This document shows, in pieces, positions 34,650 through 62,799 of a stretch of 64,000 nucleotides of DNA. The notes under the pieces are model-generated. The model made no database searches, was not told where the DNA came from, and saw only the letters and a program-made list of their open reading frames with translations. The stretch is from Paracoccaceae bacterium (GTDB lineage: Bacteria; Pseudomonadota; Alphaproteobacteria; Rhodobacterales; Rhodobacteraceae), in assembly GCA_965208685.1 (NCBI GenBank), contig CBDBPL010000005.1:14995-78994 (forward strand), in the 5' to 3' direction. Both the position numbers and the translations under genes were made by a program. Positions within the stretch are counted from its first letter, which is position 1; each line of letters starts with the position of its first letter.

Positions 34650-35652
34650 CCGGATTGGCCGTGCCCGGCTGCGAGCACAGGCGGAGCGAAAGGGAGATCG
34701 TTCGGGTCTTCATGCAACGCGGACAATGGCAGCCAGGCAATGCGTCAGCGATTTCGGCTTGGGGTCGCACTTTCCAATGGGCATCGGCGAGAATCAGCAG
34801 GCTCGCGCAGCTAGGGCACTGGAACCCATGGAACGCCGGGCGGGACAGGCACCGCATGCCATGCGAGGGATCCCGCTGCAGGTGGCGATGCAGCATGGAC
34901 CCGGACATCGCTGCGGACGAACCGGCCCGAACCGCTGCGGGTCTGCATGCGACCCGCAGCGGACCGCTCCCTGGACGAGCGTTCAGGGACCGGACCTCGA
35001 TCTTCCGGGCAGACCGGCGCACGACGGACGGCTCCGGCCGGCCCCTCCTTTCTGACGGGCAGCCTGGAACCTGGGCATCGTCATTCCGCTGCGAAGGCAG
35101 CGTATTCTCTCGCGAATCGAACGACGGGGCTCTCCGGCTCGACATGCACGTCGCTCACGTTCGCGCGTTGCAGGAACTCCCGAAAGCGATCGGGCACGCC
35201 TGCATCGATGTCCACCACATGCACGGGAGCGTCCGCGTCCGGGACTGTTCCCGGCCAAGAACTGTGCCGCGGCCATGACCCAAACATACCAATACGGGAG
35301 AGCTTGTCGACAATCTGCGCCTCATCGGCTCGGATGCGGCTCGCGGCGGGATCCCAGTCTTGGGCTTATAGTGGAGTGCCATACCGCGAACACAACCAAG
35401 AGGCGTTCCCCGTAGCGTCTGCGTTGGACCAAACTTTGTCCTCCGGTTCTGGTTCGAATCGCGCATAGACCAGTGCTGCAATCTTCTTTCTTTCCTTTAA
35501 TGTCGAAGCTATTTTGCACACTCCTTGCAAACTCGTCGGTTTTATCTAGCAGTCGAAATATTTCTTCACCCTCTTCGGTAAGTGAAGTCACATGTATCCT
35601 GTCCTCGATGGTCGAGTCCAAAGCCCTAATGAATAGTGCAAGAGCTGTACCT

Positions 35653-36306
35653 CTAAACGTTTGCTCCCCTGGTTTCGCCACTTGGCTTTATTTCCCTGTA
35701 CAATCCCAATTGACCCTCTGTCGTAATTCCAATTGTTTTCATGCGTTCAAGATCCGCGTCGCTTACAGAAGATATTTCGTAGCCCATCTCGAAGTTGTCT
35801 GCATGAACGATCGAGTTGCCAAGGACATAGGGCGCAATATGGTCTAGCGTGCGAATGTCTTTTGATGACAACTCCCGAATTGTCGAGACGACCCGAGCAG
35901 GATAGTTCGATTGGTTTAGTTGAACTTCGGCAAGCAGCTGTTTCCAGATTGTCGGTATTTCATGATAGGCGTCAGTGGCCAAGAGAGGAAATTGTCGGCC
36001 TTCATCACCCAACGCGAATGTCGTAGGACTATCCCCAAGCAAACCTCGGACTCTAGTCCGAACGGTTTCGTCCGCTACTATCCAACTTAGCGCAAGCACG
36101 ATGCTCCAAACTACACAGGAAGTTAGGAAACCGAACAATTTGGCAGCTAACCAGTAAAGCAGCCCGGACCGACCTGCTACACCAACGAAATATCCACCTC
36201 TTCGATAAGTCTTCATTACTTCGCCCTCTGCGGAGAAAGTGGGACCGGAGTTAGCTGGTAACATGGAGTTATCATCACGTGACTCGGTTTCACTTCTCTT
36301 GTCCAT
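35653..36306 (-). CDS. hypothetical membrane-anchored protein (217 aa) in the low-GC block
   Basis: Hydrophobic segment GLLYWLAAKLFGFLTSCVVWSIVLALSWIV. Codon usage and GC differ from the surrounding DNA. No family recognised. ORF 35322..35681 overlaps its 3' end and may be a frameshifted continuation. Confidence 0.5.
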   Translation of the reverse strand: MDKRSETESRDDNSMLPANSGPTFSAEGEVMKTYRRGGYFVGVAGRSGLLYWLAAKLFGFLTSCVVWSIVLALSWIVADETVRTRVRGLLGDSPTTFALGDEGRQFPLLATDAYHEIPTIWKQLLAEVQLNQSNYPARVVSTIRELSSKDIRTLDHIAPYVLGNSIVHADNFEMGYEISSVSDADLERMKTIGITTEGQLGLYREIKPSGETRGANV

Positions 36307-36973: not shown

Positions 36974-39306
36974 CTATCAACCTGCCACACCTGTATAGGT
37001 GATCCTATTCCCGCCTTTTCTCGCCGATGGCGTCACGTACCTGTATCGCCCAGTTGAGCCTTTCGAGCCCTTGCCAGACTTTTTTCGCGCCCGGGAGCGG
37101 CTGGCGAGGGTTTGGATGGGAGCCGACGAGACGCCCGAGATCGATCACCACCGCGCGAATGTCGGGCACCTGCCCGGCGGGCATCCTCACCACGTTCCGG
37201 TGGCCCTGCGATTCCAGCATCGTGTGAAGCAGGTCGATGTCCTCCTCCGGAAACACCTCGGTCGCGGGGGTTTCCGGGCGCTCCCGCGCGAGGACGGTGA
37301 TGTCGGCGACGTGGACGGCGGTGACCGCGTCGAAGGCGAGGCACTTGCGCAGGTCGTCGGCGCTGTCCAGCCGGCGGTCCTTTATCCGGGTCCCGGTCTT
37401 GAGTGTTCGGAACCAGGTTTCAACTGTCCATCTCAAACGGTACCAGCCCAGCACGGTCGCGGCATGCACGGCGTCGGCCTCCCCCTCCGCAGGGCGCTCG
37501 GTGGTCAGCAGCAGCCAGTGCAGCGGGTCGTCGCCGTCGGCCTCGATCTCGGTGGCCGAGACGGCGAACATGGGCAGCGGGTCCGCGCCGCGGTCCCAGT
37601 GCGGCGGCACGATCTCCACCTCGGCCGTGCGGATCTCGAGGCGGGCCATGCGCTCCTTCCGCGCGCGGGGGCCGCCGGCGGCCGGGATCGTCAGTTCCGA
37701 CACCGCGACGGGCGGCCGGGCCGCGACGTGCTCCCACAGGCACGCCTTCCCGCCGCCGGGCACCGTCACGCGCTGCTGCGCCGAGCGGCTGGCGCGGACC
37801 AGCAGCGCGTCGCCGTCGTCCACGGCGTGGGCGAGCAGGTCCCAGAAGTCGCCCTCGCGGTCGCAGACCGAGACCACCCGCGTGTCCGGGCAGGCCGCCG
37901 CGAGTTCCCGCGCCCGCCCGAGGCCCTCGACCCAGCGCCGGCTGTCCTCCTCGGGATCCTCCCGGAAGGCCGCGTCCATCGCGAACAGGCCGAGCGGCCG
38001 GCCCTCGGACGTCACCGCGAGCCCGGCGTGGGCGAGGATGCCGACGCTGCCCTTGCCGCCGCCGCCGATCCCGTCCAAGCCCTTCGTGGCCTCCAGGCCG
38101 GTGTAGTTCAGGGCCGTCGTATCCTGTATCGCAAGGACCACGGGCTCCGCCCGGCAGCGGTCCGCGGTGGCCTCGAAATGCGGTTCCAGAACGTGCTCCA
38201 TGGATATCCTCGGGTTCGACAGCAGGCGGTACGCGGCCTTCTGCTCCGCCTTCGTCGGAAAGATGACCGGCAGGTCGTCCCCCATGTTCTTCAGCCAGGA
38301 CCGGCCCATGTCAACGATGCGCCGCCGCACCCGCCCGTCGGTGTGGCCCGTGCGACCGTACTCCCGCTCCGCCCAGTCCAGGTCCGCGCCGTCATAAGCG
38401 CCGGCCAGCGCCCCGACCGGGCGGCGTTGCACGCGACAAAGCGCCTTCCGCCAGCCTTCCTCCAGCGCCAGCACCCGCACCGTGCCGGCCTCGTTCCTGC
38501 GTCCTCCGGTCCGGCCGGCGACGGTCCAGCCCGCGCAATGGTAGCAGTAGCCGTCGTGCTCCGGGCCGACATGGGTGTAGGCCGCCACCGGGCGCACCGA
38601 ATAGCGGGCCTCCCAGTCGTCGGCGATCGTGTCCGCGGCCATGCGCAGGATCTCGGACGCGAGGCCGTAAACGCGCACGCCCGGGAGCAGGAGATAGCGA
38701 TGGTTGCAGATCACGCGCCCGATGTTGGCTGCGCGGGCGTCGGCGGACCATCCGATCCACTCGTCGCGCGCCCGGAGCTGCCAGGCCGCCGAACCGAAGC
38801 CGATCCCGCCGAGGACGCCGTGGCGCTCCGAGCGGATCCAGTAGCGCACCTGGCCGCCGGGAGGCCGCGCCCATCCCAGCGGATGATGCGTCTCCATCAT
38901 CGCCTCCCACAAGCGGCGGTCGTCGGCGTCGCCCACCAGGTCGAGCGAGACGGGGCCGAGATCCTCAAGCGCGCAGGCCAGCCTGGTGTCGGGAACGTCA
39001 CCGGCCGGAACGGCGGGCGCGGCGGCCGGATCCGGCATGTCGCGGGCGGGCGGAAGCTCGATCCCGATGCGCTCCGCGAGCGTCGGCAGCGCCTTCGCCG
39101 CCGCCGACAGGCACGGGTGGCCGAGGGCGTTGAGCCAGCCGGTGCGCTCGCACAGTTCGCGGGCCAGCGCATGCCGCGTGTGCTCGCCGGAGCGCAAGGC
39201 AACGGCGAGCCAGTCAAGCGTGCGCGAATCGAAATGGCGAAGGCCGACCTGCATGCCCGCGCCATACAGGAACCCGATCACCTATACAAGTATGGGGTCT
39301 TGAAAG
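36974..39306 (-). mobile_element. IS4/Tn5-like insertion sequence, copy 1 (2,333 bp) with a 9-bp target duplication
   Basis: 31-bp imperfect terminal IRs (ctatcaacctgccacacctgtataggtgatc versus the reverse complement of gatcacctatacaagtatggggtcttgaaag). Perfect 9-bp direct repeat gttccggag at 36965..36973 and 39307..39315. Confidence 0.85.
37005..39254 (-). CDS. IS4-family (Tn5-like) DDE transposase with a ~300-aa N-terminal DUF4338-like extension (749 aa)
   Basis: C-half has AIQDTT (D), VCDREGD (D) and YRLRWTVETWFRTLKTG (Y-R-E-K signature). N-half has HHPLGWARPPGGQVRYW...WIGWSADARAANIGRVICNHRYLLLPGVRVYGLAS...DDWEARY, as I recall for DUF4338. Confidence 0.8.
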   Translation of the reverse strand: MQVGLRHFDSRTLDWLAVALRSGEHTRHALARELCERTGWLNALGHPCLSAAAKALPTLAERIGIELPPARDMPDPAAAPAVPAGDVPDTRLACALEDLGPVSLDLVGDADDRRLWEAMMETHHPLGWARPPGGQVRYWIRSERHGVLGGIGFGSAAWQLRARDEWIGWSADARAANIGRVICNHRYLLLPGVRVYGLASEILRMAADTIADDWEARYSVRPVAAYTHVGPEHDGYCYHCAGWTVAGRTGGRRNEAGTVRVLALEEGWRKALCRVQRRPVGALAGAYDGADLDWAEREYGRTGHTDGRVRRRIVDMGRSWLKNMGDDLPVIFPTKAEQKAAYRLLSNPRISMEHVLEPHFEATADRCRAEPVVLAIQDTTALNYTGLEATKGLDGIGGGGKGSVGILAHAGLAVTSEGRPLGLFAMDAAFREDPEEDSRRWVEGLGRARELAAACPDTRVVSVCDREGDFWDLLAHAVDDGDALLVRASRSAQQRVTVPGGGKACLWEHVAARPPVAVSELTIPAAGGPRARKERMARLEIRTAEVEIVPPHWDRGADPLPMFAVSATEIEADGDDPLHWLLLTTERPAEGEADAVHAATVLGWYRLRWTVETWFRTLKTGTRIKDRRLDSADDLRKCLAFDAVTAVHVADITVLARERPETPATEVFPEEDIDLLHTMLESQGHRNVVRMPAGQVPDIRAVVIDLGRLVGSHPNPRQPLPGAKKVWQGLERLNWAIQVRDAIGEKRRE

Positions 39307-39858
39307 GTTCCGGAGCCACGCCCATTTGATCTTACTTGCTTCTCGCATTTGTAGGATCTCGTTTGGGCACTTTGACATGTCGAGCCACCCTATTTCTTTG
39401 AGCCTGCTGAATGTTTCAATGTACCATTCTTTGGATGGTGCCTTATCTTTGTCTTTGTAGCATTCGTCGTAGTATCGGAATAACCCATTCCTTATCATTT
39501 CAATTTCGTCAAAGGTGAGCCGAGAACTTCGACGAGATAGTACTTCGATCATGTTTTCCCGAAATGATTCGAACAAATTCTTTCGAAAACCATCCATGAT
39601 GACGGTGCTATCTACTCCGATATGAGACGTGTCGATGCTGAATAGTTCTAGCACAGCATAGGCACGAACCCATATCATATCGGAGATAAATTTTGCTTGT
39701 ACCTTTCTCTCGCGACGTCTTTGGAGAGCATCCATAATGCCAAAAGCTATCGCCAAAATGATGCCTGCTGCAACACCCGAAATGGCTTGGCTAACGATGT
39801 TGGCAAGTGTTCCGTCCATATCAATCACCCTAGGGTTTTCCGTAACTGCTCTCCACAA
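39214..39858 (-). CDS. hypothetical membrane-anchored protein whose 3' end now reads into IS copy 1
   Basis: TM helix ISGVAAGIILAIAFGIM in low-GC DNA. The ancestral ORF would end ...KWAWLRN-TGA, with the TGA now at 36962..36964 across the IS. The present ORF gains 30 IS-encoded codons. Confidence 0.5.
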   Translation of the reverse strand: MWRAVTENPRVIDMDGTLANIVSQAISGVAAGIILAIAFGIMDALQRRRERKVQAKFISDMIWVRAYAVLELFSIDTSHIGVDSTVIMDGFRKNLFESFRENMIEVLSRRSSRLTFDEIEMIRNGLFRYYDECYKDKDKAPSKEWYIETFSRLKEIGWLDMSKCPNEILQMREASKIKWAWLRNLSRPHTCIGDRVPVWRGHAGRPSPFRFAHA

Positions 39859-40109: not shown

Positions 40110-42442
40110 CTATCAACCTGCCACACCTGTATAGGTGATCCTATTCCCGCCTTTTCTCGCCGATGGCGTCACGCACCTGTATCGCCCAGTTGAGCCGTTC
40201 GAGCCCCTGCCAGACTTTCTTCGTGCCCGGAAGCGGCTGGCGAGGGTTTGGATGGGAGCCGACGAGGCGCCCGAGATCGATGACAACGGCGTGAATGTCG
40301 GGCACCTGCCCGGCGGGCATCCTGACGACATCCCGGTGGCCTTGAGATTCCAGCATCGTGTGAAGCAGGTCCACGTCCTCTTCAGGGAACACTTCGGTTG
40401 CCGGGGTTTCCGGGCGCTCCCGCGCGAGGACGGTGATGTCGGCGACGTGGACGGCGGTGACCGCGTCGAAGGCGAGGCACTTGCGCAGGTCGTCGGCGCT
40501 GTCCAGCCGGCGGTCCTTTATCCGGGTCCCGGTCTTGAGTGTCCGGAACCAGGTTTCAACTGTCCATCTCAGACGGTACCAGCCCAGCACGGTCGCGGCA
40601 TGCACGGCGTCGGCCTCGTCCTCCGCAGGGCGCTCGGTGGTCAGCAGCAGCCAGTGCAGCGGGTCGTCGCCGTCGGCCCCGGTCTCGGTGGCCGAGACGG
40701 CGAACATGGGCAGCGGGTCCGCGCCGCGGTCCCAGCGCGGCGGCACGATCCAGACTTCCGCCGTGCGGATCTCGAGGCGGGCCATGCGCTCCTTGCGCGC
40801 GCGGGGGCCGCCGGCGGCCGGGATCGTCAGCTCCGACACCGCGACGGGCGGCCGGGCCGCGACATGCTCCCACAGGCACGCCTTCCCGCCGCCGGGCACC
40901 GTCACGCGCTGCTGCGCCGAGCGGCTGGCGCGGACCAGCAGCGCGTCGCCGTCGTCCACGGCGTGGGCGAGCAGGTCCCAGAAGTCGCCCTCGCGGTCGC
41001 AGACGGAGACCACACGCGTGTCCGGGCAGGCCGCCGCGAGTTCCCGCGCCCGCCCGAGGCCCTCGACCCAGCGCCGGCTGTCCTCCTCGGGATCCTCCCG
41101 GAAGGCCGCGTCCATCGCGAACAGGCCGAGCGGCCGGCCCTCGGACGTCACCGCGAGCCCGGCGTGGGCGAGGATGCCGACGCTGCCCTTGCCGCCGCCG
41201 CCGATCCCGTCCAGGCCCGTCGTGGCCTCCAGGCCGGTGTAGTTCAGGGCCGTCGTGTCCTGTATCGCAAGGACCACGGGCTCCGCCCGGCAGCGGTCCG
41301 CGGTCGCCTCGAAATGCGGTTCCAGAACGTGCTCCATGGATATCCTCGGGTTCGACAGCAGGCGGTAGGCGGCCCTCTGCTCCGCCTTCGTCGGAAAGAT
41401 GACCGGCAGGTCTTCCCCCATGTTCTTCAGCCAGGACCGGCCCATGTCAACGATGCGTCGCCGCACCCGCCCGTCGGTGTGGCCCGTGCGACCGTACTCC
41501 CGCTCCGCCCAGTCCAGGTCCGTGCCGTCATACGCGCCGGCCAGCGCCCCGACCGGGCGGCGCACCGTCTTGCCGAGCGCCTTCCGCCAGCCGTCCTCGA
41601 GCGCCAGCACCCGCACCGTGCTGGCCTCGTTCCTGCGTCCGCCGGTCCGCCCGGCGACGGTCCAGCCCGCGCAATGGTAGCAGTAGCCGTCGTGCTCCGG
41701 GCCGACATGGGTGTAGGCCGCCACCGGGCGCACCGAATAGCGGGCCTCCCAGTCGTCAGCCACCCGCCGCGCGGCCATGCGCAGGATCTCGGACGCGAGG
41801 CCGTGGATACGCACGCCCGGGAGCAAAAGATAGCGATGGTTGCAGATCACGCGCCCGATGTTGGCGGCGCGGGCGTCGGCGGACCATCCGATCCACGCGT
41901 CGCGCGCCCGGAGCTGCCAGGCCGCCGAACCGAAGCCGATCCCGCCGAGGACGCCGTGGCGCTCCGAGCGGATCCAGTAGCGGACCTGGCCGCCTGGAGG
42001 CCGCGCCCATCCCAGCGGATGATGCGTCTCCATCATCGCCTCCCACAAGCGGCGGTCGTCGGCGTCGCCCACCAGGTCGAGCGAGACGGGGCCGAGATCC
42101 TCAAGCGCGCAGGCCAGCTTGGTGTCGGGAACGTCACCGGCCGGAACGGCGGGCGCGACGGCCGGATCCGGCACGTCGCGCGCCGGCGGAAGCTCGATCC
42201 CGATCCGCTCCGCGAGCGCCGGCAGCGCCGCCGCCGCCGCAGACAGGCACGGGCGGCCAAGGGCGTTGAGCCAGCCGGTGCGCTCGCACAGTTCGCGGGC
42301 CAGCGCATGCCGCGTGTGCTCGCCGGAGCGCAAGGCAACGGCCAGCCAGTCAAGCGTGCGCGAATCGAAATGGCGAAGGCCGACCTGCATGCCCGCGCCA
42401 TACAGGAATCGGATTACCTACACAAGTATGGCACTTTGAAAG
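40110..42442 (-). mobile_element. IS4/Tn5-like insertion sequence, copy 2 (2,333 bp), no target duplication
   Basis: Collinear with copy 1 with scattered substitutions; the right IR reads gattacctacacaagtatggcactttgaaag. The 9-bp flanks gttcttgtt and gccaacggc differ. Confidence 0.85.
40141..42390 (-). CDS. IS4-family transposase with DUF4338-like N-terminal extension, copy 2 (749 aa)
   Basis: Same architecture as 37005..39254 with a handful of amino-acid differences. Confidence 0.8.
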   Translation of the reverse strand: MQVGLRHFDSRTLDWLAVALRSGEHTRHALARELCERTGWLNALGRPCLSAAAAALPALAERIGIELPPARDVPDPAVAPAVPAGDVPDTKLACALEDLGPVSLDLVGDADDRRLWEAMMETHHPLGWARPPGGQVRYWIRSERHGVLGGIGFGSAAWQLRARDAWIGWSADARAANIGRVICNHRYLLLPGVRIHGLASEILRMAARRVADDWEARYSVRPVAAYTHVGPEHDGYCYHCAGWTVAGRTGGRRNEASTVRVLALEDGWRKALGKTVRRPVGALAGAYDGTDLDWAEREYGRTGHTDGRVRRRIVDMGRSWLKNMGEDLPVIFPTKAEQRAAYRLLSNPRISMEHVLEPHFEATADRCRAEPVVLAIQDTTALNYTGLEATTGLDGIGGGGKGSVGILAHAGLAVTSEGRPLGLFAMDAAFREDPEEDSRRWVEGLGRARELAAACPDTRVVSVCDREGDFWDLLAHAVDDGDALLVRASRSAQQRVTVPGGGKACLWEHVAARPPVAVSELTIPAAGGPRARKERMARLEIRTAEVWIVPPRWDRGADPLPMFAVSATETGADGDDPLHWLLLTTERPAEDEADAVHAATVLGWYRLRWTVETWFRTLKTGTRIKDRRLDSADDLRKCLAFDAVTAVHVADITVLARERPETPATEVFPEEDVDLLHTMLESQGHRDVVRMPAGQVPDIHAVVIDLGRLVGSHPNPRQPLPGTKKVWQGLERLNWAIQVRDAIGEKRRE

Positions 42443-42504
42443 GCCAACGGCACGGTCATCCCGGACAGTGTGTTCCCGCTATGGATGCCAACGGGCACTA
42501 GGCA

Positions 42505-43218
42505 TTAGAACGGGATTTCATCGTCGTCGCTGCTGTTGCTCTCATCACCATCAAAAGACCCTGGCAGTTCTTTTCGGGGCGGTTCGATCTCCCTTATCTT
42601 GATGGGCTTTGGGAGTTTTGGTTCGGCTTCTTTGGCATCGTCAATTAGGCCCATAATTTTCTCAAACCAAGGCCACCACGGTCGCGCACCTTCCCGTTCA
42701 AGAACAGCACTTAGGCCGGCAAGAGATCTCGCCAAATCAGCAAACCGATCAAATCGTGTTCGGTCTTTGCTGACCTCAACAGAAAGTTTGGCAAGTATTT
42801 CGAATAGGCTCTCCTTTTTCGATGGCGGCGCATTGGAATTCTCGACTTCGTCTCGAATCTTCTTGATGAAACGACGAATTTTCGTTTTTTGCACTTCAGT
42901 TAGACCGACAATCATGGCATTCTGGCGTCGGGATATTTCAATGCGAATTTGGACAATAACACTGTCAACTGCTCGCAAAAAATCATCAAAGTTGGCATTA
43001 TGAGCATTCAAATCCCTAGTGTCCACCGCAAAGCCCGATAAAGATTCAATCTCAAGCGCTTTCGCAGCAGCAAGAACCTTGTTCATGTAGTCGGCAGAAA
43101 GGTACGACCAGTTTGAGTTTTGGTCCTCTTGGCGATTTTCCAGTTCGTTGCGAAACTCGCGCTCAAGCTGCAGAAATGCAACATGATCATCGTCAGAAAT
43201 TTGTTCGTACAGGTCCAT
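42505..43218 (-). CDS. hypothetical helical protein ending in an SSB-type acidic C-terminal tip
   Basis: ATG 43218 (MDLYEQI) is preceded by ggaggga. Helical, charged body, then a Pro/Lys-rich linker AEPKLPKPIKIREIEPPRKELPGSFDGDESNSS and the terminal DDDEIPF-stop. Low-GC DNA. Confidence 0.55.
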   Translation of the reverse strand: MDLYEQISDDDHVAFLQLEREFRNELENRQEDQNSNWSYLSADYMNKVLAAAKALEIESLSGFAVDTRDLNAHNANFDDFLRAVDSVIVQIRIEISRRQNAMIVGLTEVQKTKIRRFIKKIRDEVENSNAPPSKKESLFEILAKLSVEVSKDRTRFDRFADLARSLAGLSAVLEREGARPWWPWFEKIMGLIDDAKEAEPKLPKPIKIREIEPPRKELPGSFDGDESNSSDDDEIPF

Positions 43219-43561
43219 CCATCGTCCCTCCATCCAATTCCAGACACCAATTTAAGGCAGAGGCGCGTTAGTGCAACAACGTTCCCTGCGCCGGTCCTAT
43301 GTGAATGTGATCGTCGCGAATCTTCGTGTGGTCCGTTGACCGACGACAATCTCCTTTCGAGTTGCTGCGCATGGCAAAGGCTCCGAATATCTCATTTGAT
43401 GGCGTTGCATGGTGTCCGCAAGCCAGGGCAGATGTTGAGTTTAGGACGCATGTTGCATGCAAGCGGAGGACGGACCACGTGCGGATGCAATGTGGTGACG
43501 CCATGGTTGGCACCAAGCCGCTAGTGCGACAATTAACGTGCGAGGTGTTGTTTGCGTTGTC

Positions 43562-44057: not shown

Positions 44058-44306
44058 TCACGCCCGATGCAGTTTCAGGTTCCCCGTGTACTCGCATGCC
44101 GGGTAGTTCGAGCATCCGAGGAAGCGACCGAACCTCCCCATCTTGGTCTCCAGCCAGCCTTCGCAGTCCGGGCATGCCTCGATCGAAGCCGCGCAGTCGC
44201 GGCAGCGAAACCCGTCGCCTGACCTGACAGGCAGGCCGGTGCCGCACTTCGGGCACGGGCGCCCCGTGTGCTCGCAATGGGGCCAGTTCGAACAGCCGTA
44301 GAAGAT
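44058..44306 (-). pseudogene. C-terminal fragment of the disrupted helicase IV-like gene (topoisomerase-type zinc fingers)
   Basis: (I)FYGCSNWPHCEHTGRPCPKCG...FLGCSNYPACEYTG. Joins in frame to ...ARDGTIF at 62947 once 44307..62946 and one copy of aagat are removed. Confidence 0.75.
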
Positions 44307-44343: not shown

Positions 44344-45372
44344 TCATGAAGCATCTTCGCCGGGTTCGGCCCCGTTTTCGGGAAGCTCGTAGACCAGGCG
44401 CAGTCCGGTTCCGGGGAAGACCGTTCCGGTCCGGTTGAGCTCGTCGAGCAGCCCGGCGATCGCGGCGTCGCCGGCGTTGCTGGCGGTGCCGAGGATGCGC
44501 ACCCGCAGGATGCCGTTCTCCGGGTCCGGGACGATGTCGGCCTCCGACCGGAACAGCTCCGCGAGGGGACGGCGCGGTCGGCGCTTGCCGCCCTGGGCCG
44601 CCGCGACGGCGGGCATCATCCTGGTCTCGGCCCGGTAGGCGATCATGCGGATCACGTCGAGGAGCAGCCTCTCGCCGGAGGGCAGCGCGTCGAGCATCTC
44701 GTCCTCGCCGAGTTCCGCGGCCCTGACATGCGTGGGCACCTCCCTGCGCTGCAGCTTGAGCGCCTCGCGCTCGGCGTCGAGCGTCCCGATCTCGGCCGCG
44801 ACCCTTTCGGCCGACCTGGCGGCCGCGTCGGAGGGCGCGCCCCGGAGCAGGTCGGCGACGCGGTTGCGCAGCGTGCCGAGCCTGCTCCGCATCCGGTTGA
44901 TCCGGCGGTCCAGCTCGCGCCGGGCCGGGTTGACGACGCGCGCGTCGGGATCCAGCCCGGCCAGGCCGTGGACCGGCAACCCGTCCAGGTTGAACTCCTC
45001 GCGCATGTACTTGAAGAAGCTCTCCCGCGCCCATCGCGAGAACAGGGCGCCTGCGGCCTGTTCCATCGGCACGCCGAAGTCCGTGGTCACGAGCGGGACC
45101 TGCCGGCCCGTGTCCAGCAGGCGGCGGATCTGGCGCACCTCGGGCCCGTCCCTCAGACGGATCCGCCGCTCGGCGAGCCGGACCTCGGCGGACTGCACGC
45201 CGCCGGGGCCGTGGAGCGGCGCCGCGACGGCGCGGAACTCCTCCTCCGGCCAGTCCTCGCCCCTGAAGCCCTTGTGCCAGGTGATCACCGCGATGCCGCG
45301 GCGGGCGAGGCGCTTGAACAGCGCCGGGCTCCATCCCTCCCGGTCGAAGACCAGCGTCAGCGCGGGCGTGGC
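44344..45372 (-). pseudogene. C-terminal part of the outer IS transposase (split by the IS21-like element)
   Basis: ...ATPALTLVFDREGWSPALFKRL...LVTTDFGVPMEQAAGALFSRWARESFFKYMREEF... The codons for AT are duplicated at both junctions (TSD cgtggc). Confidence 0.7.
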
Positions 45373-45486
45373 TGTGGAGTCGCGTTGAAAATTGACCCAC
45401 TTCGGGGGGTGATTCGCGTCCAAATTTGACCCACCCCAAATCAGGTGGAAACGCCTGCCTCGCAACGAATCAGCGAGGCAGTGGAG

Positions 45487-46992
45487 ATGGTGTCAGTGGA
45501 GACGATCGGCAAGATACGGCGTGCGTGGCACGTTCACGGGAGGTCCATTCGCTCGATCGCGAGGTCGATGGGCGTTTCGCGCAACACGGTCCGCAAGGTG
45601 CTGCGGTCCGACGGGTCGGCGCCGAAGTACCAGCGTTCGGACCAGCCGCACGCGAAGCTCGGCGACTTCATTCCGGAGCTTGAGCGGAAGCTGGAGGCCA
45701 ACAAGGGGAAGAAGCCGCGCGACCGCCTGAGCATGAAGCGGATCTGGCGGCAGCTCGCGGACCAGGGATGCGACGCGAGCTACAGCGCGGTCTGCCGCTA
45801 CGCGGCCGCGTGGGACCGGCGCAATGGCGGCGGCGTGTCGGGCGCCCACGTTCCGCTGGAGTTCGATCCCGGGGAGGCCTTCCAGTTCGACTGGAGCCAT
45901 GAATGGGCGGTCATCGGCGGCACGACGATGCGGCTCAGGGTGGCGCACATGCGCCTTTGCCACAGCCGCATGAGCTACGTTCGGGCGTACCTGCGCGAGA
46001 CCCAGGAGATGGTCTTCGACGCCCACAACCGGGCGTTCGGGGCGTTCGGAGGCTCGTGCCAGCGGGGAATCTACGACAACATGAAGACGGTCGTGGACGT
46101 CATCTTCGCGGGGCGGACGCGCAAGTTCAACGCCCGCTTCCTGGAGATGTGCGGGCACTTCCTCGTGGAGCCGGTGGCCTGCACGCCGAACGCGGCGTGG
46201 GAGAAGGGCCAGGTCGAGAGCCAGGTCCGCGACGTTCGCGAACGGCTGTTCCGCGAGCCGCCGCGCTTCGACAGCCTCGACGACCTGAACGACTGGCTCG
46301 AGGAGAGCTGTCGCAGGCATGCGCGGGAGCATCCGCATCCCGAAGATCCGGAGATGACGGTCCGGGAGGTGTTCGCGTGCGAGGAGCGCCGCTGCCTGAT
46401 CCCCTTTCCGGGGGCCTTCGACGGCCATCGGTCGCTGGGCCGGAGCGTCTCGAAGACCTGCCTGGTGCACTTCGACGGCAACCGGTACAGCGTCGAGGCG
46501 CGCGCGTCCGAGCAGGCGGCGGAGGTGTTTGCCTACGCGGACCGGGTCGACATCCGCCTTGACGGCGAGCTGGTCGGCAGCCACCCGCGCAGCTTCGCTC
46601 GGGGCAGGACGGTCTACGACTGGCTCCACTACCTGCCCGTGCTCGAACGCAAGCCCGGCGCGCTGCGCAACGGCGCCCCGTTCCGGAACGGGGCCCTGCC
46701 GGAGGCGCTGGAGGCGGTGAGGGGCCGGCTCGGCGCCTTCGAGGACGGCGACCGGCAGATGGTGCGAATCCTCGCGGCGGTGTCCGAGGACGGGCTCGAC
46801 GAGGTGTGCGCGGCCTGCGCCGACGCGCTGGACGGCGGCGCCGTCTCCGCCGACGTGGTCCTGAACATCCTGTCGCGACGGCGCGATCCCGGTCCGGCGC
46901 CAAGGATCGAGCTTCCCGAGCGCTTTCGCCTGAGCGTCGAGCCGGAAGCCGACTGCAGCCGCTATGACAGCCTGAGGGAGATGCGGGAATGA
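45487..46992 (+). CDS. istA: IS21-family transposase IstA
   Basis: N-terminal HTH ([19 protein letters not shown]), DDE core and typical IstA length. Overlaps istB by 4 nt. Confidence 0.9.
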
Positions 46993-47717
46993 GACGCAAG
47001 GACATCCTGGAACTGATGGGCGCGCTCGGCCTGAAAGGCATGAAGGCCGCCTACGACGAGGTGCTCGCCGACGCCGCCAGGCGCAGCCATCCCCCGGAGC
47101 GGGTTCTCGGCACGCTGCTGAAGGCGGAGGTCGCGGACAAGAAGGCGCGCTCGATCAAGTACCAGCTGTCTGTCGCCAAGCTGCCGACGGCGAAGGAGCT
47201 CGACGGGTTCGACTTCACGCAGAGCCTTGTCGAGGAGCGGCCGCTGCGCCAGCTCGCGGACGGTTCCTTCCTCGATCCGCCGCGCAACATTGTCGCGATC
47301 GGCGGAACCGGCACGGGCAAGAGTCATATTGCCGTGGCCATCGCACGGGCCTGCATCCGCCGCGGCTGCCGGGGCCGATTCTTCAACGCCGTCGAGCTGG
47401 TCAACCTCCTGGAGCAGGAGCAGCGCGACGGCCGCCAGGGCCGTCTCGCCGACGCCATGCGCCGGCGGGACTTCATCATCATTGACGAACTCGGCTACCT
47501 GCCCTTCGCCCGCACCGGCGGGCACCTCCTGTTCCACTTCGTCTCCTGCCTCTACGAGCACACGCCGATGGTCATCACCACGAACCTCCCGTTCAAGGAA
47601 TGGGCCGAGGTGTTCGGGGACCCGCGGATGACCACGGCCCTGCTCGACCGGCTCACCCATCACTGCGACATAATCGAGACCGGGAACGAGAGCTGGCGGT
47701 TCCGGCACCGCAGCTGA
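46989..47717 (+). CDS. istB: IS21-family helper ATPase IstB
   Basis: Walker [16 protein letters not shown], Walker [13 protein letters not shown] and a typical IstB C-terminus. Confidence 0.9.
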
Positions 47718-50910: not shown

Positions 50911-52482
50911 ATGCCTGCAACATCCAAGTGCCGCGCCCTTGCGGAGACCCTTCTGGCCGAGTTCGACGGCCTCTCCCGTTCCTTCGCCGACGAGCGTCGG
51001 CGTCAGCGCGAGGGAAAGCTCTCGGAGAGCCGGCTCGACAACTACCGGTGCACAGCCCGTCACTTCCTGATCTGGCTCAGCCTCGCCGGGATCGAGCTGC
51101 GGGCGGTCGACGGCTCGATCATCCAGCGTTTCCTGCAGCACGAATGTCGTTGCGGTGCGTCCTGTGCGTCCGTCCGTGTCAGGCGTTGGAACAGGCGCCG
51201 CACGTCGGCCGAACTCATGTGGTTCGTCCGTTTCCTCGAGAGTGCGGGACACATCGAGACAACCGGCGAACTGGAAGACAACCTGCGTCTGCTGGATGCG
51301 TTCCTCGCCGGCTTGGGCGACGAAGGCTATACGGCCAACAGCGTCAAGTCCTTCCGCTACGCATGCACCGGTTTCATCGTCTGGCTGCATCTGTCCCGCA
51401 TCCGGCTCCGGGACCTGACACCGGATGTCTTCACGCAGTACCTGAACAAGGAATTCGTCTGCTCGATCCCCGGACTGTACAGCAGCCGCCGGAAGCGGGG
51501 CACGGAAGCCTGCCATGGCCAGCTGCGCGGTTTCCTCAGGCATCTCGTCTCGATCGGACGGATCGCCCCGCTGGAGCCCGTTCCGCTCGAGCCGGCGCTG
51601 CCCGCAAGGCTCGAGCGGTTCGCCCTCTGGCTTGAGCGCCATCGCGGCATCGCGCCGAGGAGCATACGCCAGCATGTCCGGGCAATCACGCGAATGCTGC
51701 CCGCGCTTGGGGACGATCCAGGCACATATGACGCATCGCTGATCCGGTGCGCACTGCTCGACGCGATGCGGCCCTGGTCGCACAGCACCGCCCAGCATCT
51801 GGCGACCTCCGTGCGCATGTATCTCCGGTTCCTGGTCTCGGAGGACAGCGTGCCCGCCACGCTGGTCGCGGCCGTGCCGTCGGCGGCCCAACGGCGCCTG
51901 TCCGGCCTGCCACGGCACATCCCGCCCGACGACGTCGAGCGTGCCATCGCCAGCTGCGGCGGGAATCCGGCCGGCCTGCGCGACCGGGCGATCCTGCTTC
52001 TGCTCGCCCGGCTCGCGCTGCGGGCGGGTGACGTTGCCGCCCTGCGCCTCGGGGACATCGACTGGGACAGGGCCGAGATCCGTGTCGCCGGAAAGTCGCG
52101 TCGGCAAGCGGCACTCCCGCTGCCGCAGGATGTTGGCGACGCCCTGCATGCCTACATCGCCAAGGCAAGGCCGGCGACCGATGAAGACAAGGTGTTCCTG
52201 CGCGCCATGGCCCCGGCGCGCGCCCTCGCGGCTCCAAGCACTGTCAGTGGCGTTGCGAAGCGCGCGCTCGACCGTGCCGGCGTCACGACCCTCGCGGGAC
52301 GCGGGGCGCACGTGTTTCGCCACAGCCAGGCCACCGGCCTGCTCCGGTCGGGGGCCGATCTCGATGTCATCCAGGCCCTTCTGCGTCACGCCTCGCCGGG
52401 CACCACCGCGATCTATGCCAAGACGGACACGGTCATGCTGCAGGAGGTTGCCCAACCCTGGATCGGGGGGAGCGCACGATGA
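50911..52482 (+). CDS. tyrosine recombinase, first gene of RIT-2 (523 aa, extended N-terminus)
   Basis: acggagag RBS. C-terminal catalytic region ARLALRAGDV...GAHVFRHSQAT...LRHASPGTTAIYAKT. About 200 aa longer at the N-terminus than its RIT-1 counterpart. Confidence 0.85.
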   Translation: MPATSKCRALAETLLAEFDGLSRSFADERRRQREGKLSESRLDNYRCTARHFLIWLSLAGIELRAVDGSIIQRFLQHECRCGASCASVRVRRWNRRRTSAELMWFVRFLESAGHIETTGELEDNLRLLDAFLAGLGDEGYTANSVKSFRYACTGFIVWLHLSRIRLRDLTPDVFTQYLNKEFVCSIPGLYSSRRKRGTEACHGQLRGFLRHLVSIGRIAPLEPVPLEPALPARLERFALWLERHRGIAPRSIRQHVRAITRMLPALGDDPGTYDASLIRCALLDAMRPWSHSTAQHLATSVRMYLRFLVSEDSVPATLVAAVPSAAQRRLSGLPRHIPPDDVERAIASCGGNPAGLRDRAILLLLARLALRAGDVAALRLGDIDWDRAEIRVAGKSRRQAALPLPQDVGDALHAYIAKARPATDEDKVFLRAMAPARALAAPSTVSGVAKRALDRAGVTTLAGRGAHVFRHSQATGLLRSGADLDVIQALLRHASPGTTAIYAKTDTVMLQEVAQPWIGGSAR

Positions 52483-53411
52483 CCGCCAGCATCAGCGACA
52501 ATGTCGCCCGCTTCGTCGAGACGAAGCAGGCGCTCGGCTACCGGTTCACGCAGAACGAACGGATTCTCAAGAGGTTCGCGCGCTTCGCCGAGGCCCGGGG
52601 CGAGACCTTCATCCGGGCCGCGACCGTGCTCGAATGGGCATCGTCGTCAAGGACGGCATCCTCGACGACGAAGATCAGGCTGCTGCGCTTCGTGCACGAC
52701 TTCGCCCTTTGGCTGCACGCAGAGGACGAACGCCACGAAGTGCCGCATCGCGATGCGCTGGGCCGCCGGCCCTCGTGGAGACCGCGACCCTTCCCGATGC
52801 CGGTTCCGGACATCCGGAAGCTGCTGGACGCGGCGCTGTCCCGGGGTCCGGCCGGGACCATCGCGCCGCTGACCTGGCACTACTTGTTCGGTCTCATGGC
52901 CTCGACCGGCCTGCGCATCGGAGAGGCGCTCGCATTGACGCTGGAGGACGTCACCGATGACGGTCTCGTCATCCGGGACACGAAGTTCGGGAAGACAAGG
53001 CTGGTCGTGCTGCACCCCACGAGCCGGGAGGCCCTGGATCTCTACCTGGCGGCACGTCTCAGGGAGAGGACTCCGGACCGGCATCTGTTCGTGATCGCGA
53101 CCGGCCGACCTCCCCAACGCGAACACGCGGACGTCGTGTTCCGCGAGCTTGCGGAACGGGCAGGCCTTCGAAAGCCCGGCGAAAGACGCGGACCGACCCC
53201 GCACTCGCTGCGGCACGCCTTTGCCGTCAGGTCCCTTGAGAACATGCCGCCCGGCGCCCGACCCGGGCGTCACATGCTCGCCCTCTCCACCACGCTTGGC
53301 CATGCTGAACTCATGAGCACGTTCTGGTACCTGGAGGCGACCCCTGTCCTTCTGCGCGGCATTGCCGAGGCCACGGAGCGCGCATTCGTGAACGGAGGGG
53401 CCGATGACTGA
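52479..53411 (+). CDS. tyrosine recombinase, second gene of RIT-2
   Basis: ...MASTGLRIGEALAL...LRHAFAVRSL...LGHAELMSTFWYLEATPVLL. 4-nt overlap upstream and 8-nt overlap downstream. Confidence 0.85.
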   Translation: MTASISDNVARFVETKQALGYRFTQNERILKRFARFAEARGETFIRAATVLEWASSSRTASSTTKIRLLRFVHDFALWLHAEDERHEVPHRDALGRRPSWRPRPFPMPVPDIRKLLDAALSRGPAGTIAPLTWHYLFGLMASTGLRIGEALALTLEDVTDDGLVIRDTKFGKTRLVVLHPTSREALDLYLAARLRERTPDRHLFVIATGRPPQREHADVVFRELAERAGLRKPGERRGPTPHSLRHAFAVRSLENMPPGARPGRHMLALSTTLGHAELMSTFWYLEATPVLLRGIAEATERAFVNGGADD

Positions 53412-53754
53412 TCTTGCCCCCCACCTCACGGCCTTCCTGCTGGAGCACCTTCCTGTCGAGCGGCGCTTCAGCCGCCATACCGTGCAGAGCTACAGGGAAT
53501 GCTTCCGGCTGCTCGTCCCCTACGCTGCCAAACGGGTCAAGACCCGTCCCTGCACACTGAAGATCGAGCACCTTACGGCCGCGCTCGTTCTGGCTTTCCT
53601 CGACTTCCTGGAAAGCGAACGCGGAAACGGCGTCAGCACCCGCAACAATCGTCTCGCCGCGATAAAGTCTTTTTTTCGCTACCTGGAGTACCGTGTCCCG
53701 GAGTGCCTCGATCTGGCGTTCGCAGGTGCGCGCGATTCTGCGCAGCAATGATGC
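53404..53754 (+). pseudogene. third recombinase gene of RIT-2, N-terminal fragment (frameshifted, then cut by IS66-A)
   Basis: MTDLAPHLTAFLLEHLP...NRLAAIKSFFRYLEY parallels RIT-1 60401... After ECLDLA the homologous reading (SQVRAILRS) is in another frame. Confidence 0.7.
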
Positions 53755-60317: not shown

Positions 60318-60404
60318 TTTTGGTACCTTGACGCAACGCCGACCATCATGCGGGGAATCGCCGACGATGCCGAGAGAATGCACCTTGGGCAGGTGTCGTC
60401 ATGA
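60318..60404 (+). pseudogene. C-terminal 28 codons of the RIT-1 second recombinase gene
   Basis: FWYLDATPTIMRGIADDAERMHLGQVSS-stop. ATGA overlap with the third gene at 60401. Confidence 0.75.
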
Positions 60405-61402
60405 CGGCCATCGCCCCGCACGTGAGCGCGTTTCTGCTCGAGCACCTGCCACATGTTCGTGGCGCAAGTGTCCACACGGTCAAGAGCTATGCCCATGCGA
60501 TCAAGCTGTTTGTCGTGTTCGCCGGCGAACGGCTCGAACGGCAGCCTGCGCTGATCGACATCGGACAACTTGATGCTCAACTGGTGCTGGACTGGCTTGA
60601 CTGTCTGGAAAACGACCGGGCCAACAGCGCGAGCTCGCGCAATGTCCGTCTCGCGGCAATCAAGTCCATGTTCCGCTTCCTCGAGTTGCGGATGCCGGAA
60701 AGTCTCGGCCTGTCCCGACAGATCCATGCCATCCCGGCAAAGCGTTGCGAAAACAAGCTCGTCGACTGGCTTGAACGCGATGAGTTGCAGGCTTTGCTCG
60801 ATGCCCCGAGTCTCAGCACACGTGGCGGTCTGCGCGACCGTGCCATGATGCACCTGACCTATGCCTGTGGGCTTCGGGTCTCGGAGTTGACATCTCTCAC
60901 ACTTGCCAGCCTGAACTGGCCGGGTCCGCAAAGTGTCCGGATCAGAGGCAAGGGTCGGCGAGAAAGAGTGATGCCGCTGTGGCATGCAACCCAGGAGATT
61001 CTCGGTCTGTGGATCGACCGTCGGCCTCCTCTCAAGCACGACGGCTTGTTCCCGAATGCTCGTGGCGGGATCATGAACCGACACGGCTTCGCGTCCCGTC
61101 TCGCAGTCCACGTCGAGGCCGCCAGTCGTGCATGTCCGTCCTTGGCCCGCAAGAATGTCACTCCTCATGTACTTCGACACAGCTGCGCGATTCACGTCCT
61201 GCAGGCCACCGGCGACATTCGGAAGGTATCGATATGGCTTGGACACGCCTCGGTGACGTCCACGGAAACCTATCTTCGAGCGCTTCCGGACGAGAAACTC
61301 TCCATTCTGAACAGCCACCCTGCACCGAATCTGGAGAAGGGACAGTTCGGCGACGTCGAGGACTCTCTGATCTCGTTACTCGACAGCCTCCGGACCGGTT
61401 AA
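60401..61402 (+). CDS. tyrosine recombinase, third gene of RIT-1 (RitC position)
   Basis: ...YACGLRVSELTSL...VTPHVLRHSCAIHVL...IWLGHASVTSTETYLRA. The stop abuts the right IR. Confidence 0.85.
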   Translation: MTAIAPHVSAFLLEHLPHVRGASVHTVKSYAHAIKLFVVFAGERLERQPALIDIGQLDAQLVLDWLDCLENDRANSASSRNVRLAAIKSMFRFLELRMPESLGLSRQIHAIPAKRCENKLVDWLERDELQALLDAPSLSTRGGLRDRAMMHLTYACGLRVSELTSLTLASLNWPGPQSVRIRGKGRRERVMPLWHATQEILGLWIDRRPPLKHDGLFPNARGGIMNRHGFASRLAVHVEAASRACPSLARKNVTPHVLRHSCAIHVLQATGDIRKVSIWLGHASVTSTETYLRALPDEKLSILNSHPAPNLEKGQFGDVEDSLISLLDSLRTG

Positions 61403-61493
61403 CGTAATGGCAAGAAATCAGCCTCTGGAATCTCGGGATTCCAGAGGCTTAAGCTCACTTACTCAACATTAGAATGCAGTTCAGATTAAGTTC
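61403..61493 (-). repeat. RIT-1 right terminal inverted repeat (91 bp)
   Basis: Exact reverse complement of 48831..48921. Confidence 0.9.
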
Positions 61494-61530
61494 AGAATGT
61501 TGAGCTCAACATTCTGAACTGGACTTGACA

Positions 61531-62799
61531 CGTGGCGTCCTCCGATGCCGTGAGGTCCGGCGCATCCGGTCCCGGCAGGCCGATCCGTTCCAGCGCCGGC
61601 AGCACGTCCTGCTCCAGCGCCCTGGCCATGCCGGGGTCGAGATCCTTGTGCAGGCACAGGAGCGGCCTGCCGCCGAGCGCGTTGACCCAGTAGCTCGTCG
61701 AGGCGGGCAGGCAGAGCTTCTGCCGCGACACGAAGTGCTTCGGAAGCCGTCCCTTCCGGCCCGCGTAGACCTTCACGTGCCCGTCCACCGCCAGCGTGGC
61801 GACCGTGTCGCCGCCGTCCGCCATCCAGTCCCGCGCGAGCGCGTCCTGCCAGCCCTTCACCCGCCGCTCGTCCGCCGCGAGCGCCCGGACCTTGCGCCGC
61901 AGCGTCTTCGCCTCCGGGCAGCGGTCCAGTCCGAGGACCGCGCCCCACTCCCCCGGCGCCTCGTGGCGGAGCGCCTCGGGGTTGCGGACCCGGGCCAGGA
62001 ACAGGAACGCGAGAAGGAGAAGCGTGCTCGTCAGCCCGTAGTAGCCCTTCGGCAGCGACAGGAACCTGTCCGCGTGCTGCAGGAGGCCCTCCTCCAGCAG
62101 CGCCGGCAGCGCGGCCAGGACGCCGCCGCAGGCGACCGCCGACAGCGGCTCGTCGAAGCGCGGCTGCGCCTCCGCCATCGCCCCCGCCGAGGCCGCGACG
62201 CGGCCCGCGCTGTCGCGCGCGGCCCGGCCCATCGGCGCCGCCCGGTCGCGCCGGTCCCGCCCGCTGCGGCCGAGCGGGGCTTCACGGACGGCGGACGCCG
62301 TGCCGGTTTCCGTCTCCGCAACCTCCGGTTCGGGCCGCGGCCTGGCGCCGCCGGGCATTCCGTCGCCGATGAAGCCCCGCCGGCGGTTGTGGTTGAGCGT
62401 CGCGACGGAGACCCCGAGCTCCCTGGCGGCGGCCGCGCCGCTCATGCCCTCGGCCAGGAGACGGTTCGCCGCGTCCGCCGTCTCCCCGGTTATCGCGCTG
62501 GTGCCCCGGCCCCGGCGCGGCTCGTGGAACGCCGCCTCGCCCCTGTCCCGGAGCTTGTCCAGCGCCCTGTGCACCGTCGTGCGGCTGATGCCGAACGCCG
62601 CCTGCAGGTCCCTGTGGGGGATGCCGTGCCTGGCGAACCTGGCGACCCGCAGCAGCATCGCCGGGCGGTCGTCCTCGCCGTGGCAGTCGAAGGGCTCGAG
62701 GTTGGAGAAGTAGACGGTCTGGCCGTCGTCGGACGCGAAGGAGAAGCATGAGGCGCCGATCTGGGCGGCTTCCGGGGGGCTGACGGGGAGTGTGTTCAT
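61531..62799 (-). pseudogene. N-terminal part of the outer IS transposase (423 codons)
   Basis: HTH modules (FGISRTTVHRALDKLR; ARELGVSVATLNHNRR), then ...ATLAVDGHVKVYAG...LTASEDAT before reading into the IS21 end. Rejoined with 44344..45366 it gives about 763 aa. Confidence 0.7.

Follow-up and report, generated by a model that had tools for sequence, protein, structure and literature searches.

Introduction

[quoted passage not shown] We here describe a gene at positions 42505–43218 of a 64-kb stretch of DNA from a Paracoccaceae bacterium (64,000 nucleotides, hereafter referred to as the window), the product of which ends in a tip of this kind on a body predicted to be unrelated to the oligonucleotide/oligosaccharide-binding (OB) fold of SSB. 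The docking motif itself is already known, as are SSBs of mobile elements that carry host-like tips, whereas a widespread unnamed family of non-OB proteins that carry the exact tip of the host SSB is new, as far as the searched libraries and papers go.

The family shares with the bacterial SSB (PF00436) the layout of a folded domain, a flexible linker and an acidic tip, and the last seven to eight residues of its commonest form are identical to those of SSB (DLDDEIPF). However, SSB has an OB fold and a low-complexity Gly/Gln/Pro linker and is encoded by an essential gene, whereas the family is predicted to be an all-α bundle without a sequence or structural relative, has a conserved Pro/Lys motif as the linker and is encoded by a gene that is accessory, low in GC content and mobile. 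The SSBs of phages and plasmids with host-like tips, which include classical OB SSBs, T7 gp2.5 (PF21265), Enc34 (PF10991) and Bas52_0087 of the DRT10 study, are similar in being mobile-element proteins that bear the tip of the host SSB and that presumably engage the partners of the latter. They are, however, OB-type proteins that bind single-stranded DNA (ssDNA) and reside in replication modules, in contrast to the other predicted fold, the lack of a detectable DNA-binding domain and the moron-like site of the present family; no match of the protein to the T7 gp2.5, Enc34 or phrog_9002 profiles or folds was found in the same kind of search in which other tip-bearing open reading frames (ORFs) were matched. 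Another protein that is non-canonical and lacks an OB fold is DdrB of Deinococcus, the disordered C-terminus of which was once called an SSB-like motif, but DdrB is a β-rich pentameric protein for ssDNA binding and annealing, and the purported motif is dispensable for radioresistance (PMC3834827). The present family, to which no homology of DdrB was detected, is instead predicted to be α-helical and carries an exact copy of the SSB C-terminal tip (SSB-Ct) that is under strong selection. The RecBCD inhibitors gp5.9 and Abc2 are likewise mobile-element proteins that manipulate a host genome-maintenance hub (PMC9836394), but they operate by DNA mimicry or direct binding to RecBCD, whereas the putative handle of the present family is a copied C-terminal docking peptide; there is no similarity in sequence or fold between them.

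With respect to function, we suggest that the tip probably acts in trans as a functional SSB-Ct mimic. For the protein as a whole, we are inclined to favor a two-part adaptor or tethered inhibitor, in which an all-α body, a Pro-rich linker and a spacer would carry the host-SSB tip for docking on SSB-partner enzymes.

Results and Discussion

Predicted fold of the product

The preliminary description, which was made from the letters of the DNA, had reported a 237-amino-acid ORF ending in SSDDDEIPF; its coordinates were found to be exact, and the coding strand is the minus strand (Table 1), the plus-strand frame over the same positions being riddled with stop codons. The start codon is the ATG at 43218, which is preceded by the Shine-Dalgarno sequence GGAGGG with a 7-nt spacer. 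An alternative in-frame ATG lies five codons further 5' (43233) and would give a 242-amino-acid product, but the former is the more likely start, given that translation of the homologues begins at the MD(P/L)YE position. The product terminates in ...PGSFDGDESNSSDDDEIPF* (also written ...EPKLPKPIKIREIEPPRKELPGSFDGDESNSSDDDEIPF-TAA), and it is alone among the ORFs of the window, with all six frames considered, in ending in the pattern [DE][DEG]x[ILVM]PF.

The whole product has an isoelectric point (pI) of 4.85 and a net charge of −12, the corresponding values for the body alone (residues 1–198) being 5.07 and −7, and a basic stretch with a net charge of +7 lies within the body at residues 81–120. 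AlphaFold2 modeling gave an all-α structure both with an alignment of 32 sequences, with a mean confidence (predicted local distance difference test, pLDDT) of 77.8, and with an alignment of 108 sequences of distant relatives, with a pLDDT of 90.8 and a predicted template modeling score (pTM) of 0.75. Seven helices are present in the model within residues 11–198 (11–30, 37–54, 70–101, 108–126, 132–150, 156–174 and 182–198), together with a two-strand mini-sheet (103–105/153–155). The most conserved residues of the body are F15, Y44, K111, K134, E148, R153 and T154, among which the polar ones (K111, K134, E148, R153 and T154) are invariant and located next to the mini-sheet.

A structural or sequence relative of the body was not found in any of the libraries searched. 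The best Foldseek match of both models in PDB had an E-value of 0.15 and a template modeling (TM) score below 0.3, that in BFVD had an E-value of 0.03, and nothing in the two databases had an E-value below 0.03 or a TM score above 0.33. Similarly, hmmsearch of PDB sequences with the family profile gave nothing with an E-value below 0.01, neither the protein nor its 108 aligned relatives matched the SSB, T7-SSB or Enc34 families of Pfam, and scans of the protein and of distant relatives against Pfam, NCBIfam, PHROGs and PADLOC gave no family match. Sub-threshold matches to ACP_SdgA_C, Mediator subunits and Cas8a were dismissed as helical noise; Cas8a, with 17 bits and an E-value of 9e-4 over a helical stretch, was the sole match in PADLOC-DB v2, which gave no significant match to a defense system. 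A divergent OB-fold SSB, the possibility that had been raised for exclusion at the outset, was rejected in view of the confident all-α model and the absence of any match to an SSB family, a PDB profile or a fold. Thus, the models and the sequence searches indicate that the protein is not an SSB, in agreement with its initial characterization as charged and helical with no OB fold.

The Pro/Lys-rich segment that follows the body (EPKLPKPIKIREIEPPRKELPGS) was confirmed at residues 199–221. It had been described as probably disordered; in the alignments and the model, only residues 222–229 behave as a variable disordered spacer. Within the linker, L202, P203 and P214 are each kept in more than 83% of the representatives, and the Pro-rich segment 201–220 has a pLDDT of about 80–87 in the deep-alignment model, suggesting that the linker packs on the body. 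Members of the family differ in how long the spacer is and in its sequence, and the last approximately 17 residues of the model are of low confidence, with a pLDDT of about 57.

This layout of a folded domain, a flexible linker and an acidic tip copies that of SSB, and the protein could accordingly be conceived of as a non-OB helical binder of ssDNA or another nucleic acid, i.e., an SSB analogue which would coat the DNA of the element and recruit host enzymes by its tip, as do the T7 gp2.5 and Enc34 SSBs. The basic stretch would be in line with such a role, as would the finding that, in the census described below, many of the phage proteins with the tip bind ssDNA by means of various folds (PF21265, PF10991 and phrog_9002). 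However, the body as a whole is acidic and has no likeness to any known ssDNA-binding fold, and the gene is found at prophage ends, in islands or solo in chromosomes rather than in replication or recombination modules, which makes this explanation improbable.

A host-type tip maintained across the family

The 7-mer LDDEIPF is reported to be the C-terminus of the SSB of Rhodobacter sphaeroides and to be present in the SSBs of 5795 of 18,841 alphaproteobacterial assemblies, and DLDDEIPF, the last eight residues (C8) of the R. sphaeroides SSB, in those of 4352 (PMC13490951). The commonest last eight residues in the present family are exactly this alphaproteobacterial C8, and the protein of the window has DDDEIPF. 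It is on exactly this C-terminal tip that SSB partners dock (PMC10164576). The features of an SSB-Ct mimic are present in that the motif of the host lineage is located at a free C-terminus, is preceded by a disordered spacer and is conserved above its surroundings.

The family was found to be large. A word-indexed search gave 76 homologous clusters at 90% identity, all annotated as hypothetical, and when 1.84 billion representatives were searched exhaustively with HMMER, there were 493 clusters at 50% identity with an E-value of 1e-3 or lower, including 211 with an E-value of 1e-10 or lower, none of which is named. Hosts with names among the 90%-identity clusters are Rhodobacterales (Sagittula, Roseivivax, Rhodovulum, Paracoccus, Ruegeria, Sulfitobacter and Roseobacter) and Breoghania, to which the profile search added Pseudorhodoplanes and Rhodobium, so that the named hosts are Rhodobacterales and Hyphomicrobiales. 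Full-text literature searches found no described non-SSB family with an SSB tip and no report of SSB-tip mimicry or decoys. The earlier impression that a family of this kind had not been described therefore holds as far as the family libraries and these searches reach.

For the statistics of the tail, 126 full-length representatives at 50% identity were used, which were picked regardless of the C-terminus. Of these, 103 (82%) were found to end in PF, and the information content was highest in the last eight residues (2.69 bits/column), compared with 1.98 in the Pro-rich linker, 1.82 in the body and 0.41 in the spacer. Among 209 members ending in PF, a choice of subset that by itself sets F and P to 100%, position −3 is I in 93%, position −4 is E or D in 99%, position −5 is D in 92% and position −6 is D in 89%; L at −7 and D at −8 are kept in about half of them, and the signal is gone at −9. 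DLDDEIPF accounts for 49 of the 209. Furthermore, the tip is kept at a body identity as low as 23–34% (P0264 and P0076). The tip is not due to chance because it is conserved across the family, and the alignments indicate that it is under strong selection. As for the longer members (P0202, P0084, P0189 and others), their extensions contain no Pfam domains and are probably mis-called starts or frameshifts.

In the Rhodobacterales branch, the C-terminus is ...PDGGYGSGRDLDDEIPF, with a Gly/Tyr-rich spacer that is like the end of the SSB linker. The likeness to SSB in this branch thus reaches beyond the tip, including the Gly/Tyr spacer and an Arg at −9, and the 21 classical OB SSBs among the viral-contig matches listed (see below) end in ...GGYGG(A/G)RDLDDEIPF. 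Such resemblance of the spacer and tip of this subfamily (GGYGSGRDLDDEIPF) to the very end of SSB, together with the representatives that lack the tip, could be taken to mean that the tail is a relic devoid of function, left over, for example, when the gene was once fused to the 3' end of ssb, or that it is only an intramolecular latch. In a comparison at the DNA level aimed at a recent capture of the tail from ssb, however, the similarity to ssb 3' ends was confined to the 25–35 nt encoding the tip. The tip is moreover among the most conserved eight-residue windows of the protein, even though identity within the family has fallen to about 25% and the adjacent spacer varies freely. The tail-less representatives are also scattered, most of their nearest relatives keeping the tip, and the tip is therefore likely to be ancestral and to have been lost sporadically or mis-assembled; some of the tail-less members are probably frameshifts or assembly errors. 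With these findings, a relic is scarcely credible.

Mobility of the gene

An all-versus-all comparison of neighboring genes at 16 loci revealed no conserved neighbor, as would be expected if the partners of the protein are not encoded with it but belong to the conserved proteins of the host. The nucleotide homology between loci is limited to the gene, about 80–260 bp upstream of it and 60–170 bp downstream, and the GC content of the gene is always below that of its surroundings (46–53% versus 50–67%). Therefore, the gene moves as a solo cassette of about 1 kb, which presumably carries its own promoter. In the window, the GC content of the gene is 46.6%, compared with 64% for the entire stretch, and blastn against the locus of the closest homologue (L004) gave 78% identity over 929 bp, which corresponds to the gene plus about 210 bp upstream. 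This upstream block presumably holds the gene's own promoter, although a scan for sigma-70 promoter and terminator consensus sequences found nothing convincing upstream or downstream of the gene. LexA boxes of the alphaproteobacterial or E. coli type were not found in the 400 bp upstream of 16 members.

A family member was found on four IMG/VR viral contigs, and a pattern scan of 185,579 species genomes gave nine loci, the patterns having been built from an alignment of close relatives (A1) so that only relatives fitting them are recovered. The settings of the gene (Table 1) include prophages, a plasmid-like contig and islands. With its patchy spread, atypical GC content and variable neighbors in these contexts, it is an accessory or cargo (moron-type) gene of mobile elements.

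The occurrence of the gene at prophage ends by integrases and among defense genes (Fic, GmrSD and EcoRII) would be compatible with its being a defense moron for superinfection exclusion, which would trap the proteins of other mobile elements that dock on the host SSB tip, such as annealing proteins of the Red-beta/RecT type. In this regard, the compatibility of phage single-strand annealing proteins (SSAPs) depends on the C-terminal seven to eight residues of the host SSB (PMC13490951; PMC6393309). The PADLOC scan, however, gave nothing beyond the 17-bit Cas8a match, and the gene also lies by a plasmid relaxase and in compact phage-like elements, for which an offensive role is equally plausible. 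Thus, a trap for rival elements seems quite improbable.

Proposed role of the protein

In the two-part adaptor or tethered inhibitor that we favor, the tip would insert into the SSB-Ct-binding pocket of at least one SSB-interacting enzyme of the host. Docking in the SSB-Ct pockets of host genome-maintenance enzymes is inferred from established SSB biology, and the candidate partners in Alphaproteobacteria would be PriA, RecG, RecO, RecJ, RecQ, the χ subunit of Pol III, DnaG and Ung. A second, hypothetical target may be engaged by the conserved body through the polar cluster of K111, K134, E148, R153 and T154, and the protein would thereby redirect or block part of the SSB interactome to the benefit of the carrier element. 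The invariance of these polar residues and the conservation of the linker argue that the body does more than display a peptide.

A simpler possibility is that the protein is a pure decoy, in which the body would be a mere scaffold presenting SSB tips, perhaps several per oligomer, to titrate SSB-interacting enzymes off SSB-coated ssDNA, thereby shielding the incoming or replicating DNA of the element from host nucleases and helicases or disabling an immune sensor that relies on SSB partners. The identity of the tip to that of the host SSB, the acidic body, which is unlikely to bind DNA, and the finding that the gene stands alone, together with an upstream region of its own, at the ends of prophages and in defense or anti-defense neighborhoods are all in agreement with this. 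Also relevant is the proposal that an SSB-like phage protein ending in FDDDIPF competes with SbcB when DRT10 is activated (bioRxiv 10.64898/2026.04.29.721553). However, a scaffold needs neither invariant polar residues nor a Pro-rich linker conserved across 493 clusters, and constant titration of PriA, RecG or χ should be costly to the lysogen. A bare decoy is thus unlikely, and the two-part adaptor or inhibitor was preferred because of these residues, the conserved linker and the tendency of tips in the census to be found on proteins that have activities of their own.

Several points nevertheless weigh against this preference. Approximately 18% of the full-length representatives (23 of 126) lack the tip, and the body and linker may therefore function alone. 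The body is acidic and has no recognizable binding or catalytic domain, which leaves the second target purely hypothetical. Wherever the host of a member is named, it belongs to a lineage with one and the same SSB tip. Furthermore, two loci (L001 and L021) lie among housekeeping genes with few unknown ORFs around, and tblastn against the cultured phages of INPHARED and the plasmids of PLSDB gave no match, so that the link to mobile elements rests on the prophage, island and metagenome contexts.

Other proteins bearing the tip

To place the family in a wider context, IMG/VR contigs were scanned for the exact coding pattern L-D-D-E-I-P-F-stop. At least 120 stretches matched, compared with a chance expectation of about two or fewer as estimated from the pattern frequency. 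Among the matches listed, 80 loci (L022–L101) contained 81 tip-ending ORFs in 35 sequence clusters. These comprised 21 classical OB SSBs, nine SSBs of the T7 gp2.5 or Enc34 type (PF21265 and PF10991), two phrog_9002 SSBs and two members of the present family (L049 and L048, with E-values of 3e-55 and 1e-16 with the tail removed). They also comprised three Arc/ribbon-helix-helix proteins (L028, L046 and L089) and one each of a superfamily 2 (SF2) helicase (L040), an SSAP (L054) and a DUF6511 protein (L050), for which the Pfam model reaches the very C-terminus including the tip. For the remaining ORFs among those listed, the scans, which covered part of the clusters, gave no Pfam match and, where PHROGs were used, no PHROG annotation. 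The non-SSB proteins (L040, L028, L046, L089, L054 and L050) resemble the family in having a C-terminal LDDEIPF on a non-SSB body in viral contigs, but their bodies are unrelated and, except for DUF6511, have recognizable DNA-handling domains, whereas the body studied here has no known domain.

With its presence on several unrelated phage proteins, the tip is a portable module, and the family is one case of a wider phenomenon, not a unique oddity. As it is appended to proteins that have their own DNA-handling activities, the tip appears to plug into the host network. No paper describing it as a portable module on phage proteins was found in the literature searches. It is conceivable, although rather doubtful, that grafting of the SSB tip is a general undescribed strategy by which phages, plasmids and islands wire into or jam the genome-maintenance hub. 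The all-α family would then represent this strategy in its purest form, as a dedicated and horizontally mobile hijacker of the hub, with a novel fold that serves to deliver or block one specific SSB partner of the host, for example, so that incoming DNA is protected or rival phages are kept out.

If the tip functions as suggested, the exploitation of the SSB hub by mobile elements would be a case of motif mimicry, comparable to the use of host short linear motifs by eukaryotic viruses. In that event, the family could be a natural tool for finding which SSB partner matters in phage infection, lysogeny and conjugation in Alphaproteobacteria, and it offers a ready set of natural tip-presenting scaffolds. 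The census suggests that the phenomenon reaches helicases, regulators and annealing proteins, which bears on the portability of recombineering and on defense systems that sense SSB-like proteins. The family thus provides a concrete and testable entry into the use of the SSB hub by mobile elements.

Surroundings of the gene in the window and at other loci

The features of the window and those of the other loci are summarized in Table 1.

Table 1. Coordinates and settings of the tip-bearing gene, its surroundings in the window, related loci and tip-bearing ORFs from the viral-contig census. IS, insertion sequence; GC3, GC content at third codon positions.
Sequence	Feature	Position	Strand	Basis or remark
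Window	Complete coding sequence, 237 amino acids plus TAA stop (42505–42507)	42505–43218	minus	ORF and translation
Window	Folded helical body, residues 1–198 (predicted)	42625–43218	minus	AlphaFold2 models and column conservation
Window	Conserved Pro-rich linker, residues 199–221 (E-P-x-L-P-x-P...K/R-x-I-E-P-P-R-K-x-L-P)	42556–42624	minus	Alignments
Window	Variable disordered spacer, residues 222–229 (FDGDESNS)	42532–42555	minus	0.41 bits/column, indels, pLDDT ~57
Window	C-terminal tip, residues 230–237 (S-D-D-D-E-I-P-F), SSB-Ct-type short linear motif	42508–42531	minus	Tail statistics
Window	Upstream region traveling with the gene, including Shine-Dalgarno GGAGGG (43226–43231)	43219–43428	minus	blastn against L004
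Window	IS4-type element, 2.3 kb; transposase at 40141–42390	40110–42443	minus	Ends 61 bp downstream of the gene's stop codon
Window	Second copy of the IS4-type element	36974–39307		95.4% identical
Window	UvrD-type helicase remnant, C-terminal Zn ribbon	44064–44306	minus	tblastn of the L004 helicase (residues 857–937 at 44306–44064), Pfam
Window	Further helicase piece	63986–62940		tblastn of the L004 helicase (residues 512–860)
Window	Transposase_29 (PF21804), first piece	61492–62799	minus	Profile positions 8–213
Window	Transposase_29 (PF21804), second piece	44344–45465	minus	Profile positions 234–560
Window	IS21-type istA/istB	45445–47717		
Window	Tyrosine-recombinase-like ORFs	~50911–53751, 60401–61402		
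Window	Low-GC3 ORFs	35322–36306, 39308–39858	minus	GC3 ~0.47; no Pfam match
Window	Low-GC 214-amino-acid ORF between the IS copies	39214–39858		Rejected as a paralogue
Window	Tandem direct duplication, first unit	53738–55558/55939–56682		99% identical to second unit
Window	Tandem direct duplication, second unit	56868–58688/59069–59812		
Window	B12-dependent ribonucleotide reductase	1366–5361		
Window	tRNA-Pro (TGG)	5813–5889		
L004 (closest homologue)	Family member			Between two integrases, UvrD/Zn-ribbon helicase, and a block of EcoRII, Dcm and HATPase_c_3
L013 (Sulfitobacter)	Family member			Tail and terminase genes on one side, a large serine recombinase on the other
L049 (viral contig)	Family member			Downstream of a large serine recombinase
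L017 (viral contig)	Family member			Directly 3' of GpA terminase in a compact PrimPol-VapE element
L007 (Ruegeria conchae)	Family member			Adjoins PrimPol/DUF927 and a tape-measure gene
L020 (Rhodovulum)	Family member			Beside phage lysozyme, Fic, GmrSD and D12 methylase
L019 (plasmid-like contig)	Family member			After MobA/TraI relaxase and DUF6118
L005	Family member			Overlaps a resolvase gene
L001, L021	Family members			Small insertions amid housekeeping genes
L001	Conserved upstream block	9926–10000		~75 nt upstream of start
L019	Same-strand ORF 3' of the gene	7285–8079		No Pfam match
L001	Same-strand ORFs 3' of the gene	10933–11511, 11675–12370		
L005	Same-strand ORFs 3' of the gene	10878–11492, 12268–12978		
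L040	SF2 helicase, 586 amino acids (ResIII/DEAD/Helicase_C)	10323–12083	minus	Tip-ending ORF in the census
L054	SSAP (phrog_3290)	507–1325	minus	Tip-ending ORF in the census

In the island of the closest homologue, the gene is preceded by an intact helicase of 938 amino acids with a C-terminal topoisomerase-type Zn ribbon, a neighbor that is shared only between this island and the window. In the window, the helicase was found by tblastn as two pieces on the minus strand about 18.6 kb apart, with nested IS and recombinase insertions between them, and the window ends inside the helicase gene. The helicase was split because of the insertion of a Transposase_29 element, which is itself split into two pieces about 16 kb apart by the IS21-type istA/istB, the tyrosine-recombinase-like ORFs and other elements. 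The tip-bearing gene, which in the window thus lies in a heavily scrambled, IS-rich island, is intact despite these surrounding insertions.

The transposases of the two IS4-type copies, which are of 749–758 amino acids, have an N-terminal DruA (Druantia, PF14236) domain followed by Tnp_DNA_bind and DDE_Tnp_1. A low-GC segment of 802 bp is flanked by the copies, and a low-GC ORF of 214 amino acids between them was considered as a paralogue of the tip-bearing gene and rejected on testing. The low-GC3 ORFs of the window lie downstream of the gene, with the two IS copies in between, and for at least one of them a hydrophobic helix is predicted. These ORFs may be what is left of the same acquired island.

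Elsewhere in the family, a strongly conserved block upstream of the start (...GTTCAGGCGGTGACAATGCCCAAGCGCCGCGCTACCGTGGCGAAAAGTAAATGGCTTGAGGGGCAGTAAATG) was observed at L001, L008, L009, L017 and L020, where it travels with the gene in one subfamily, and it differs from the upstream block common to the window and L004. These conserved upstream blocks probably contain promoters or regulatory sites. On the 3' side of the gene, same-strand ORFs of 192–264 amino acids are present at L019, L001 and L005, which are mutually unrelated by BLASTP.

In the remainder of the window, the B12-dependent ribonucleotide reductase gene is about 74% identical at the DNA level to replicons of Sinorhizobium and Shinella, and tRNA-Pro is the sole tRNA gene; these two indicate an alphaproteobacterial chromosome or chromid. 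A unit encoding ORFs of 575 and 247 amino acids, with a very high GC3, is present as a tandem direct duplication with a spacing of 3130 bp.

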